In this document: in pieces, positions 1,861 to 6,298 of the stretch
How the letters are laid out: each line of letters opens with the position of its first letter
How positions within the stretch are numbered: position 1 is the first letter of the stretch
Source: a phage
Direction: 5' to 3' (one strand)
Assembly (NCBI GenBank): GCA_017003895.1
Contig: GCA_017003895.1_4520.1
Length of the DNA stretch: 64,000 bases
Translations under genes and position numbers: made by a program
The notes under the pieces: model-generated
Seen by the model: the letters and a program-made list of their open reading frames with translations, nothing else
Databases searched by the model: none
What the model was told of the DNA's origin: nothing

Positions 1861-1889
1861 TAAAAACGAAGAAAGGGGCCGAAGCCCCT
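1861..1889 (-). terminator. rho-independent terminator downstream of hoc
   Basis: Stem AGGGGC cgaa GCCCCT (1874-1889) followed on the minus strand by a T-run. Confidence 0.6.
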
Positions 1890-1894
1890 TACGA

Positions 1895-3313
1895 TTATGG
1901 ATATGTATAGATGATACCAGTTTCCAAAGCAGTTTTATGGATGATATATCCATTACGCGATTCTTGAACATCAACTTCTGGATAATCTTTCATCATCTTC
2001 TGGAGAGTGTAACGATGCAGGTAGTATTTACTATCTGGGTCGTCAATTTTCCAATCTTTACCTTCTTCAGTCATTTTTTGGATTTCATCCATAACCCACC
2101 AACCGCACCAGATGTAAGCTGAAGTACGATGTGGAAGAGGATGGACATAAGGCAATTCACCTTCTGGTTCCGGAGCAACTTTATCAGTTACCTGAACTTG
2201 ACCCGTCGTTTTAACTGTTTTACTATCATAATCGGTTGCAGTAACAACTGCAGTAACTTCAATAGTTTGACTTCCAACAGATGAGGTATCAACTGTATAC
2301 ACATTAGTCGATCCTTCTACAGGAGAAGAATCTTTCTTCCATGAATAAGTAATTTGTGCCGATTCTGGTGCACCAGTCACATTAGCAGTAAATGTAGCCG
2401 AAGCATCTTGCTGGACATTAATAGAAGGAGGAGTCAATGTAACCTGTGGATTCATTGTCTTCTTATTAACAGTCAGTGACACTTCATTAGAAGTAACTTC
2501 TTTTGCATTATAATCATCAGCAGTTACTTGGGCTACGCATTTAATTCTTTTGACTCCATTCGTAGTTGGAGTATAGTTAAATGTAGAGTTAGTTTCTCCA
2601 CCAACTTGAGAATCATCTACATACCATTGATATGTAGCAGACGCTCCAGCAGGTTGAGAAGCTAAGGCCGCAGTAAATTTAACCGGGGTTCCAATTACTC
2701 CAGCTGAAGGACTAGCAGGAGTTACTGCCAATGTAGTGGTCTGCGTCTTTTTATTAACAGTCAGTGATACTTCATTAGAAGTAACGCTCAGCGCATCATA
2801 ATTTGCTGCAGTTACTTGAGCTACACACTTGATTTTTTTAACTCCGCTTGTGGTAGGAGTGTAATTGAATGTAGCGCTAGTCGCTTCGCTCACAGGAGAA
2901 TCGTCAACATACCATTGATACGTAGCAGATGCACCTGATGGCTGCGAAGCCAAAGCAGCAGTAAATTTAACAGCTGTTCCAATTACTCCTGCTGGAGGAC
3001 TATTGGGAGTTACGGCTAATGTAGTCGTCTGAGTTTTGTTTTTGACTGTAATAGTTGTAGTAGCTTCTGCTGTTTCAGCATCAGTATCTGGGACTGTGTT
3101 TGTTGCAACTACTTTAATAGTCTTTTGTCCAGCAGGACCCTTTAATACATAACTAAAAGTTGCTTCAGCTCCATCTTGTGGAGCATCGTCTACAGTCCAA
3201 GCATAAGTAATAGTTCCACCTCCAGTTTCACCACTGGGCGTAGCAGTAAACTGCTTAGTCTGATCTATAACTCCAGTAGGCGTTTTAGGAGTTATATCAA
3301 CTGTAAAAGCCAT
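1895..3313 (-). CDS. hoc: highly immunogenic outer capsid protein Hoc with four Ig-like domains
   Basis: 472 aa; Thr/Ser-rich Ig-like repeats (…YQWYVDDS…FNYTPTT…KCVAQVTA…), conserved C-terminal capsid-binding segment; position next to inh. Confidence 0.8.
   Translation of the reverse strand: MAFTVDITPKTPTGVIDQTKQFTATPSGETGGGTITYAWTVDDAPQDGAEATFSYVLKGPAGQKTIKVVATNTVPDTDAETAEATTTITVKNKTQTTTLAVTPNSPPAGVIGTAVKFTAALASQPSGASATYQWYVDDSPVSEATSATFNYTPTTSGVKKIKCVAQVTAANYDALSVTSNEVSLTVNKKTQTTTLAVTPASPSAGVIGTPVKFTAALASQPAGASATYQWYVDDSQVGGETNSTFNYTPTTNGVKRIKCVAQVTADDYNAKEVTSNEVSLTVNKKTMNPQVTLTPPSINVQQDASATFTANVTGAPESAQITYSWKKDSSPVEGSTNVYTVDTSSVGSQTIEVTAVVTATDYDSKTVKTTGQVQVTDKVAPEPEGELPYVHPLPHRTSAYIWCGWWVMDEIQKMTEEGKDWKIDDPDSKYYLHRYTLQKMMKDYPEVDVQESRNGYIIHKTALETGIIYTYP
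2462..3040. repeat. tandem direct repeat (2 x ~288 bp) inside hoc encoding two near-identical Ig-like domains
   Basis: DNA blocks starting ~2462 and ~2750 are highly similar (e.g. ttattaacagtcagtga(c/t)acttcattagaagtaac at both); the protein shows two ~95 aa repeats KKTQTTTLAVTP…VSLTVNKK. Confidence 0.8.
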
Positions 3314-3322
3314 AAGTTATCC

Positions 3323-3991
3323 TTATTTTAATGTTACGAAAGAAGAATTACGAGTTTCGCGAATTAGAACTGATCCATCGCGATTAATATAATAAATTAA
3401 GCTAAATAGTGTTTGGTGTGCCGACGCATGTTCAAAACTGGTTGGGCGAGATTTCCAATCAGGTGTTTCGGCTATCCATTGATAAATCCACCAAGGAACA
3501 GTAACATACCCTGGGCCTTTGCCTAATTTAATGAGTGTAGGACTAAAATTTTCAGGCAGAACAAATTTTACTTCTTTATTTACTTCTGGCTCAGGCTCTT
3601 TTTCAGATTCAACAACCTGAGTAATTGCTTCTTCAAATTTATCATGGTCGAATTCTATTTCTTGTTCGACAACTTCTAATACTTCAACTTGTTCTGCCGG
3701 AGAATCAAACAACAGAATAGCTTCTTCTTTAACTTCTTCGTTGGTGAAATTAACACCGTCCACATCATCTGCGGCAGTAATTAAATCGGTGATAGATAAT
3801 CCATCAGTTTCAGGTAATGGTTCATTAGCCAGTGCGTTAAGAGCTTCTTCGATATCAATAACAATATTATCGAATGATTTTGTTTTCTTAACACTAATAC
3901 CAAATTGTGCCGCATATTCAAACAGTTTAGCTTTGGCTTCCTTTTTATCAGAGAGAGCACGTAACTCTTCAATATAGTCTTTATCGATCAT
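3323..3991 (-). CDS. inh: inhibitor of prohead protease (Inh-like)
   Basis: 222 aa acidic protein immediately upstream of hoc, same position and size as T4 Inh. Confidence 0.6.
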   Translation of the reverse strand: MIDKDYIEELRALSDKKEAKAKLFEYAAQFGISVKKTKSFDNIVIDIEEALNALANEPLPETDGLSITDLITAADDVDGVNFTNEEVKEEAILLFDSPAEQVEVLEVVEQEIEFDHDKFEEAITQVVESEKEPEPEVNKEVKFVLPENFSPTLIKLGKGPGYVTVPWWIYQWIAETPDWKSRPTSFEHASAHQTLFSLIYYINRDGSVLIRETRNSSFVTLK

Positions 3992-4004
3992 GGTATTTCC
4001 TCAT

Positions 4005-4012
4005 TATAAATA
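4005..4012 (+). promoter_or_regulatory. late promoter (TATAAATA) for uvsW
   Basis: Exact TATAAATA 30 nt upstream of the uvsW ATG in the inh/uvsW divergent spacer. Confidence 0.5.
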
Positions 4013-4041
4013 TAACTATATTTATTACATGGTAATTTGAC

Positions 4042-5556
4042 ATGACTGACATTAAAGTACATTTTTATGATTTTAGTCACGTGCGCATTGAATGCGACGA
4101 AAGTACGTTTTACGAACTTCGTGACTTTTTTAGCTTTGAAGCTGACGGGTATAAATTTAACCCAAAATATCGCTATGGGCAATGGGATGGTAGAATTCGT
4201 CTTTTAGATTACAACCGTTTGTTACCATATGGGCTTGTAGGACAAATAAAAAAGTTCTGTAACAATATGAGTTATTCTGTATGGATTGACCCTAAAATCT
4301 TTGAGACTGAAGACCTTACCAGGGAAGATTTTGACGCATGGCTTTCTAAACAAGAAATTTATTCAGGCAACACCAAAATCGAACCACATTGGTATCAAAA
4401 AGATGCAGTATATGAAGGACTAGTTAATCGTCGTCGAATTTTAAACCTTCCAACATCAGCAGGTAAATCACTAATCCAAGCACTTTTAGCTCGATATTAT
4501 CTAGAGAACTATGAAGGTAAAATTCTCATTATCGTCCCTACAACAGCATTGACAACCCAGATGGCTAATGATTTTGTCGATTATCGCTTGTTTAGTCATT
4601 CGATGATTAAGAAAATCGGCGGTGGTGCTGATAAAGCGGACAAATCCAAAAACGACGCTCCAATTATTGTTGGCACATGGCAAACGGTAGTTAAGCAGCC
4701 TAAAGAATGGTTCTCTCAGTTCGGTATGATGATGAACGATGAATGCCACTTAGCAACAGGCAAAAGTATTTCTTCAATAATCTCAGGATTAAATAATTGC
4801 ATGTTTAAATTCGGTTTATCTGGCTCATTAAGAGACGGAAAAGCCAATGTAATGCAGTACGTAGGTATGTTCGGCGAAATCTTCCGTCCTGTTAGCACGT
4901 CTAAATTAATGGAAGACGGACAGGTAACTGAGCTTAAGATTAATAGTATTTTCCTTCGTTATCCGGACGAATTCGCCATTAAATTAAAAGGTAAAACATA
5001 CCAAGAAGAAGTTAAAATTATTACCGGACTAAAACGACGTACAAAGTGGATTGCTCAACTTTCAGTCAAATTAGCTAAGAAAGACGAGAACGCCTTTGTA
5101 ATGTTTAAACACGTTACACATGGTAAAGAAATATTTGAAGCTATTAAAGAGCTTGGATACGAAAAAGTTTATTACGTATCAGGTGAAGTTGATACCGAAA
5201 CACGTAACGCGCTTAAAGTCATGGCAGAAAATGGTAAAGGCATTATTATTGTCGCATCATATGGAGTATTCTCTACTGGTATTTCAGTCAAGAATCTTCA
5301 TCATGTTATTTTTGCCCATGGTGTTAAATCAAAAATTATCGTACTTCAAACCGTAGGTCGCGTGCTTCGTAAGCATGGTTCTAAAGCTGTTGCTACAGTT
5401 TGGGATCTCATCGATGACGCAGGTGTAAAACCTAAATCATTAAATACTAAAAAGAAGTATACTCATCTTAATTACTTGTTAAAACACGGTATTGATCGTA
5501 TCCAACGTTACGCTGATGAGAAATTTAACTATGTAATGAAAACAATTAATTTATAA
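4042..5556 (+). CDS. uvsW: UvsW RNA-DNA/DNA-DNA helicase (SF2)
   Basis: 504 aa; Walker A (PTSAGKS), DEAH-like box (MMMNDECH), helicase C motifs; N-terminus MTDIKVHFYDFSHVRIE as in T4 UvsW. Confidence 0.9.
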   Translation: MTDIKVHFYDFSHVRIECDESTFYELRDFFSFEADGYKFNPKYRYGQWDGRIRLLDYNRLLPYGLVGQIKKFCNNMSYSVWIDPKIFETEDLTREDFDAWLSKQEIYSGNTKIEPHWYQKDAVYEGLVNRRRILNLPTSAGKSLIQALLARYYLENYEGKILIIVPTTALTTQMANDFVDYRLFSHSMIKKIGGGADKADKSKNDAPIIVGTWQTVVKQPKEWFSQFGMMMNDECHLATGKSISSIISGLNNCMFKFGLSGSLRDGKANVMQYVGMFGEIFRPVSTSKLMEDGQVTELKINSIFLRYPDEFAIKLKGKTYQEEVKIITGLKRRTKWIAQLSVKLAKKDENAFVMFKHVTHGKEIFEAIKELGYEKVYYVSGEVDTETRNALKVMAENGKGIIIVASYGVFSTGISVKNLHHVIFAHGVKSKIIVLQTVGRVLRKHGSKAVATVWDLIDDAGVKPKSLNTKKKYTHLNYLLKHGIDRIQRYADEKFNYVMKTINL

Positions 5557-5581: not shown

Positions 5582-5812
5582 ATGGTACTTGAATTTAAAC
5601 AATTTTTATACGAAGCATCTATTGACGAATTCATGGGTAAAATTGCTAGTTGTCATACCTTAGAAGGGCTTGAAGAATTGGAAGCTTATTATAAGAAACG
5701 TATAAAAGAAACGGAATTAAAAGATACAGATGATATTTCTGTCAGGGATGCCTTAGCAGGTAAGCGTGCCGAACTTGAAGGCGATGATGAGGATGTGGAA
5801 GAAGACTTCTAA
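5582..5812 (+). CDS. uvsW.1: UvsW.1-like small acidic protein
   Basis: 76 aa ORF directly after uvsW with its own RBS (aggag at 5571-5575). Confidence 0.7.
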   Translation: MVLEFKQFLYEASIDEFMGKIASCHTLEGLEELEAYYKKRIKETELKDTDDISVRDALAGKRAELEGDDEDVEEDF

Positions 5813-6042: not shown

Positions 6043-6073
6043 ATTGCCTCCTAAGTTGAAATTACATATCTAT

Positions 6074-6298
6074 TTATACAACTCGCATGCACATATCGAT
6101 ACCCATATCTTTTGTATAAAAATACTCGTCGATGTACCCAGCAAACTTCCCTTTAATATAAAGGACGTCTTCGCCACAAGGGTGGTCTGCCAGAATACGA
6201 ATATCCTGGCGACGTAGACGATACTTTTCCATTAAGAATTTAATTTCAGTTTCAAATTCTTCATCATTATTAAAGGCATCTTCAATTGAATAACGCAT
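6074..6298 (-). CDS. hypothetical protein (uvsY-proximal small ORF)
   Basis: 74 aa ORF; ATGA-type overlap with uvsY stop at 6298. Confidence 0.55.
   Translation of the reverse strand: MRYSIEDAFNNDEEFETEIKFLMEKYRLRRQDIRILADHPCGEDVLYIKGKFAGYIDEYFYTKDMGIDMCMRVV

Follow-up and report, generated by a model that had tools for sequence, protein, structure and literature searches.

Hoc, the highly immunogenic outer capsid protein that decorates the head of T4-like phages, is employed as a scaffold for display, and the model of phage adherence to mucus is built on it. In the DNA considered here, a stretch of 64,000 nucleotides that we call the window, the hoc gene encodes a protein that is longer than the Hoc of T4. 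An earlier note, made from the sequence of this DNA alone, gave 472 aa against ~376 aa in T4, both of which are right, and read the excess as a recent in-frame duplication of one immunoglobulin (Ig)-like domain. The locus thus raises the questions of how many Ig-like domains this Hoc has, how old the repeat is, and whether the repeat is peculiar to the phage from which the window comes.

The hoc gene and its neighborhood

The gene is an intact frame of 472 aa in the list of open reading frames (Table 1). Its assignment to hoc is borne out by the match to T4 Hoc (E 2.9e-218 in a search of PDB sequences), by the near-identity of the C-terminal domain (residues 377-472 against T4 281-376, with only a few substitutions) and by the gene order. 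Annotated hoc genes found by megablast match it over the full length at 97% identity. The order inh-hoc-24.3-24.2-rnlB, with RNA ligase 2 downstream and uvsW beyond inh, is the one annotated in PTK, KMB38, Shf125875, T4, AlbertHofmann and RB27. The source genome is of the Mosigvirus type, with 96-98% identity over 25 kb to KMB38, Shf125875 and PhAPEC2; among the matches listed, KMB38 is the closest genome over this length (97.7%), and PTK carries the closest hoc (97.0%).

Terminators are annotated in Aplg8, fPS-65 and fPS-90 at the same place as the one after the window hoc (Table 1). No exact copy of the T4 late-promoter motif TATAAATA was found on the minus strand between hoc and uvsW (3313-4042), the nearest copy on that strand being at 6071-6078, and sigma-70-like matches in the hoc region were at or below shuffle expectation. 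On the other side of inh lies a helicase gene (4042-5556, plus strand), followed by a separate ORF of 76 aa (5582-5812, plus strand); PTK annotates the two as uvsW_1 and uvsW_2, that is, a split uvsW/uvsW.1 arrangement.

Table 1. Features of the hoc locus, with their coordinates in the window and the evidence for each
Feature	Coordinates	Strand	Evidence and remarks
hoc CDS	1895..3313 (stop codon 1895-1897)	-	ORF list, T4 Hoc match, megablast
Ig-like domain 1 (D1), aa 1-92	3038..3313	-	Aligns with T4 Hoc 1-92; all-beta AlphaFold2 model, pLDDT ~90
Repeat unit 1, Ig-like, aa 93-188	2750..3037	-	Repeat finding; Pfam Ig_2/BiPBP_C/PKD
Repeat unit 2, Ig-like, aa 189-284	2462..2749	-	Aligns with T4 domain 2; Pfam PKD, best stretch 197-253
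Last Ig-like domain (D3), aa 285-378	2180..2461	-	Equivalent of T4 domain 3; Pfam Ig_3/I-set 289-356; all-beta model
C-terminal capsid-binding domain, aa 379-472	1898..2179	-	Nearly identical to T4 Hoc 283-376; low pLDDT
288-nt tandem repeat array	2457..3031	.	Tandem Repeats Finder: 2.0 copies, 78% matches, no indels, score 721
GATTCTC in unit 1, interval of the KMB38-type crossover	2896..2902	-	Crossover scan; identical 7-mer in unit 2 at 2608-2614
Ribosome-binding site AAGGA	3320..3324	-	Sequence read; 6 nt upstream of the hoc ATG, overlaps the inh stop
Intrinsic terminator after hoc, AAGGGGC-TTCG-GCCCCTT, then T-rich tail	1863..1890	-	Sequence; hairpin search

Domain layout of the protein

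Residues 1-103 of the window Hoc align with T4 1-103, and residues 189-472 with T4 93-376, so that one unit of 96 aa is left over. In such a linear alignment the extra unit is repeat unit 1, T4's own unit being mostly unit-2-like. The protein matches the Pfam families PKD, Ig_2, Ig_3 and PKD_4 above their cut-offs. In an AlphaFold2 model computed from 21 sequences, four domains are all-beta, with block pLDDT mostly of 85-95 (~90), and the C-terminal domain that follows them is of lower confidence. Foldseek against the PDB places strings of four Ig domains at the top of the matches (Sidekick Ig1-4, Dscam and ICAM-5 D1-D4) and also returns the RB49 Hoc fragment 3shs.

Judged by sequence and predicted structure, the product of the window hoc consists of four Ig-like domains and a capsid-binding domain like that of T4. 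The count of four Ig-like domains in place of three, which had been proposed from the letters alone, held; in full, it is four plus the capsid-binding domain here, and three plus one in T4. Pfam, the T4 alignment, the model and Foldseek likewise uphold the tandem, in-frame duplication of a single Ig-like domain, which corresponds to T4 domain 2.

Anatomy of the tandem repeat

The sole array that Tandem Repeats Finder reported has a period of 288 and spans the two units (Table 1). A gap-free repeat search found the same register, pairing 2505-2761 with 2793-3049 at 77% identity, and 2457-2497 with 2745-2785, the 41 nt at the 3' ends of the units, at 95%. Block starts near 2462 and 2750 with a period of ~288 bp, as given in the earlier note, agree with both programs. 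At the protein level, 79 of the 96 residues are identical between units 1 and 2 (82%), whereas either unit shares only 28-38% with the two remaining Ig-like domains of this Hoc, so the two are on alignment much closer to each other than to the rest. Chance similarity of the units was considered and ruled out by this difference and by the Tandem Repeats Finder score (721). The wording of the earlier note was nevertheless too strong on likeness: units called near-identical in protein differ by 17 substitutions, and DNA called highly similar is 78% identical, with third-position identity of 54%.

A repeat that was collapsed or expanded during assembly of the genome would be the most trivial explanation, and tandem repeats can indeed mis-assemble, which is as specific as the case for it becomes. 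With 64 differences between the units over 288 nt, reads can be placed unambiguously; the reading frame is intact; and the same gene of 1419 nt has been sequenced independently in dozens of phages. The chance that the repeat is an artefact is close to nil.

Divergence is unevenly spread along the units. The last 41 nt of each (2457-2497 and 2745-2785) encode VTSNEVSLTVNKKT and are 95% identical in DNA, while identity falls to 73% in the unit core (unit nt 129-246), where pS is 0.74. The excess of identity at the ends over the core suggests either gene conversion or exchange there, or constraint at the nucleotide level.

Age of the two units

Units 1 and 2 are 90% identical at codon positions 1 and 2, and 54% at position 3. 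The Nei-Gojobori method gives a dS of 1.10, a dN of 0.11 and a dN/dS of 0.10, the dS being near saturation and hence imprecise (pS is 0.74 in the central third of the unit). The window is not exceptional in this respect: in all ten two-unit alleles whose DNA was compared, the units are 76-79% identical, with a dS of 0.66-1.12 and a dN/dS of 0.10-0.25. Over the flanking D1, D3 and C-terminal domain, dS between any two of 25 hoc alleles, T4 included, is 0.59 at most, and the inter-unit dS of ~1.1 exceeds this maximum among the sampled alleles.

Comparison across phages points the same way. In DNA, identity of the window's unit 1 to its counterparts in RB30, RB27, PTK and AlbertHofmann is 92-99% (99% in PTK), and that of unit 2 to unit 2 of the same phages is 95-98%, whereas identity across units is 76-79%; for RB30, the values are 92% for unit 1, 95% for unit 2 and 76-78% across. 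Unit 1 has its nearest counterpart in unit 1 of other phages (0.89) and unit 2 in their unit 2 (0.86), the value between the two positions being 0.80. The same diverged units stand in the same order in RB30, RB27, PP01, PTK, AlbertHofmann and one IMG/VR contig. At the 14 near-fixed paralogue-specific sites, all of which lie within unit nt 131-240, the units are clean positional orthologues ('1...1' and then '2...2') in eight of the ten sampled two-unit alleles, and in the window all 14 agree with the RB30-type two-unit allele. With the diagnostic sites confined to this interval, the 5' part of the unit is not assignable to a type; its 130 nt hold zero paralogue-fixed differences, so that exchange between the units blurs the dating.

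Because dS is high and the units are positionally orthologous across phages, the two units are to be read as old paralogues, both evidently under purifying selection. The reading of the earlier note, in which one Ig domain was duplicated in frame only recently in the lineage of the window's phage, would account for two units that are adjacent, in frame and far closer to each other in protein than to the remaining Ig domains, and for 3' ends that are 95% identical. It conflicts with the overall DNA identity of 78%, with the identities by codon position and the Nei-Gojobori dS and dN, on which it was rejected, with an inter-unit dS above the allelic maximum, and with the presence of orthologous units in relatives; we regard it as highly improbable. 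Part of the high inter-unit dS could, however, predate the joining of two different single-unit alleles, a point to which we return below.

Distribution among relatives and earlier annotation

Megablast of the window hoc found 663 matching records among 50,697 phage records, and prevalence was counted on 60 of the 663, spread over the ranks. A contiguous match of 1419 nt, the four-Ig form, was found in 22 of the 60, a match of ~1131 nt, T4 included, in 29, and a match of 852 nt in two (KIT06 and AV112); the remaining seven were partial. The four-Ig hoc is therefore present in about a third of these related phages. This comparison of lengths, together with annotation of the form since AY101183, is further evidence against 'recent'. 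A protein search also found three-unit forms of 568 aa, for example in phage UGKSEcP1. A scan of IMG/VR gave 21 loci, few of them close, so the DNA comparison rests on individual GenBank records. Among its distant Hoc homologues, ~2 to ~5 Ig-like domains are indicated by gene length: one locus (L016, 2706796453) has a match of 1641 nt, two (L007 and L008) have matches of ~1410 nt at ~50% identity, and two (L013 and L018) of ~835 nt.

The repeat had been seen long before. The RB30 hoc record AY101183 (2002), which labels Hoc a 'non-essential protein', carries a repeat_region noted as an intragenic repeat that gives an additional immunoglobulin-like domain. Hoc homologues are described as having 1 to 10 Ig-like domains (PMC10385173; PMC13435897), and a Hoc variant without D3 has been published for phiPNJ-9 (PMC11853027). 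Since the RB30 record annotates the repeat and papers report a varying Ig number, the four-Ig feature is already known. In the literature on RB30 Hoc and on additional or four Ig-like domains, we found no paper on the RB30-type four-Ig Hoc, just general remarks on varying domain number and the paper on the D3-less variant. The feature is, in short, a common long allele of hoc, already annotated and not specific to the window's phage.

Two classical relatives depart from the intact lengths. In T2 (NC_054931.1) the hoc match, of 1117 nt, falls on two CDSs annotated as 'Hoc-like head decoration', and in T6 (MH550421.1) it is 1132 nt, without an annotated feature. As neither 1117 nor 1132 is a multiple of three, a frameshifted or otherwise disrupted hoc is suggested in both.

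Loss of units, recombination and mosaicism

The clearest single event is provided by two close relatives of the window. Removing exactly one 288-nt period from PTK hoc (1419 nt) gives KMB38 hoc (1131 nt), with 0 mismatches in 1131 nt. All one-period deletions of PTK hoc that are possible were built and compared one by one with KMB38; the best has its crossover inside a 7-mer, GATTCTC, that occurs in both units (unit nt 135-141, scan interval 135-142), whereas removal of the whole of unit 1 or unit 2 leaves 26 or 35 mismatches. The single unit of KMB38 starts as unit 1 and switches to unit 2 after about 135 nt. The step from the PTK type to KMB38, which shortens the protein from 472 to 376 aa, was a very recent deletion, because duplication of the KMB38 unit could not give the PTK units, which are only 79% identical. 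This exact deletion shows that unequal crossing-over operates on very short time scales. The description of the repeat as a recombination hotspot was therefore apt in that the repeats serve as a substrate of length change; the direction that is documented is loss.

Single-unit alleles are of several kinds. For these, classing by protein alone proved too coarse, and the DNA diagnostic sites were used instead. Unit-1-type alleles occur in Aplg8, in the IMG/VR locus L006, in the P0084 contig and, largely, in Shf125875; unit-2-type alleles occur in AV120, KIT03, L004 and PhiZZ6 and, for the most part, in T4; and teqhad (1-to-2 polarity), RB18 (2-to-1) and Sf24 (mosaic) are chimeric. The pattern fits repeated loss and exchange.

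The window gene itself is composite. In DNA, its D1 (3038-3313) has 100% identity to the D1 of the P0084 contig and of Logan contig L031, 97.5% to that of Shf125875, and only 90.6% to that of PTK, KMB38 and AlbertHofmann, and the rest of the gene (units 1 and 2, D3 and the C-terminal domain, 1895-3037) is 97.6-99% identical to PTK. As D1 and the remainder match different alleles, the gene is a mosaic at the level of domains, and a recombination breakpoint near the boundary of D1 and unit 1 is implied.

With a probability of about 90%, we consider the window hoc to be a common long allele with an ancient repeat, whose unit number has been changed by unequal recombination. On this reading, the 288-bp direct repeats are natural substrates for unequal recombination, by which the number of units is altered in frame; forms with one, two and three units exist, the clearest documented event being a loss.

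How the two-unit state arose in the first place is a further question. Unequal recombination at co-infection could have joined two diverged single-unit alleles, one of the unit-1 type and one of the unit-2 type. Pure alleles of both types exist (Aplg8, L006 and the P0084 contig on the one side, AV120, KIT03 and L004 on the other), hoc is mosaic at the scale of domains (D1 of the window matching one allele at 100% and the rest another at 98-99%), and 2-to-1 chimeras such as RB18 and, in part, T4 are not simple deletion products. If so, the age that dS indicates may be too high for the arrangement, and single-unit alleles of the T4 kind could be ancestral and not derived. Against this origin, the only unambiguous direction of change is the loss from the PTK type to KMB38, teqhad also fits a deletion of 1-to-2 polarity, and the order is unit 1 then unit 2 in eight of the ten two-unit alleles; even so, the arrangement would be widespread and not phage-specific. 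We hold such a joining to be unlikely, although it deserves some weight. The converse, that a two-unit (or longer) state is ancestral for T-even hoc, that many three-Ig alleles, possibly T4's among them, are recurrent products of crossing-over, and that fiber length is a standing, reversible polymorphism, is a tentative proposal to which we give somewhat less than even odds. If the four-Ig form is ancestral, selection on adhesion to mucus and surfaces could act on a fiber-length polymorphism of one, two and three units.

Implications for the capsid fiber

In T4, Hoc is anchored by its C-terminal domain at the center of the gp23 hexamers, one to each and 155 to a capsid, and its Ig domains extend from there as a fiber of 180 A; the protein is dispensable for growth (PMC10385173). 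By analogy with T4, the window Hoc would be present in about 155 copies at the hexamer centers, bound through a C-terminal domain whose near-identity to that of T4 is the ground for expecting this position. An additional Ig domain would lengthen the fiber by roughly a quarter and might offer one more variable-loop surface for weak adhesion to glycans or other surfaces. Binding of Hoc to mucin glycans has been reported for T4 and relatives (PMC11150434, PMC11853027).

Across 160 units from 116 proteins, variability is concentrated at positions 12, 15, 22, 30, 34, 48-54, 61-63 and 78-84. When the variability string is set against the DSSP assignment of the AlphaFold2 model, most of these positions lie in predicted loops between strands, which gives the unit a conserved framework with variable loops.

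Comparisons of adhesion or immunogenicity among T-even phages should take into account that about a third of them have a four-Ig fiber. PTK and KMB38 form a natural near-isogenic pair, with hoc differing by one Ig unit, and are suited to mucus-adherence tests of fiber length or domain number.

Comparison with known Hoc proteins

T4 Hoc (376 aa; PDB 5vf3, 8t1x and others) aligns with the window Hoc end to end and at high identity over D1, D3 and the capsid-binding domain, and differs in having one copy of the repeated unit instead of two. That copy resembles unit 2 over most of its length and unit 1 at its 3' end. The Hoc of RB30 and RB27 (AY101183 / AAM52483.1; KM607000), at 472 aa, has the same length, five-domain layout and repeat register as that of the window; nucleotide identity is 92% over the whole gene (~8% divergence), and units 1 and 2 are orthologous. 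Their D1 differs, that of RB30 belonging to another allele group with 86% identity to the window D1, and the two phages are members of Tequatrovirus, whereas the window belongs to a Mosigvirus-type genome. Within Mosigvirus, the Hoc of the Escherichia phages vB-Eco-KMB38 and PTK has 376 and 472 aa, respectively, and the window retains both units.

Longer and shorter forms belong to the same family. The three-unit Hoc of Escherichia phage UGKSEcP1 (568 aa) shares the unit, its register and the flanking domains with the window but has one unit more, which makes five Ig-like domains; the third unit combines diagnostic sites of unit 1 with those of unit 2 in a mosaic. The short Hoc of KIT06 and AV112 (283 aa) represents another in-frame change of domain number, in which D3 is gone and not a repeated unit. 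In this deletion, the '...SNEVSL' that ends the unit is followed directly by 'TVT(D/A)KVAPEPEG' from the end of D3, which makes it a second kind of in-frame loss in the gene. More distantly, the Hoc proteins of RB49 (PDB 3SHS), Serratia phage Muldoon (1174 aa) and Klebsiella phage PMBT63 are far from the window Hoc in sequence, and share with it a plan in which Ig-like domains are strung on a capsid-binding domain that is conserved.
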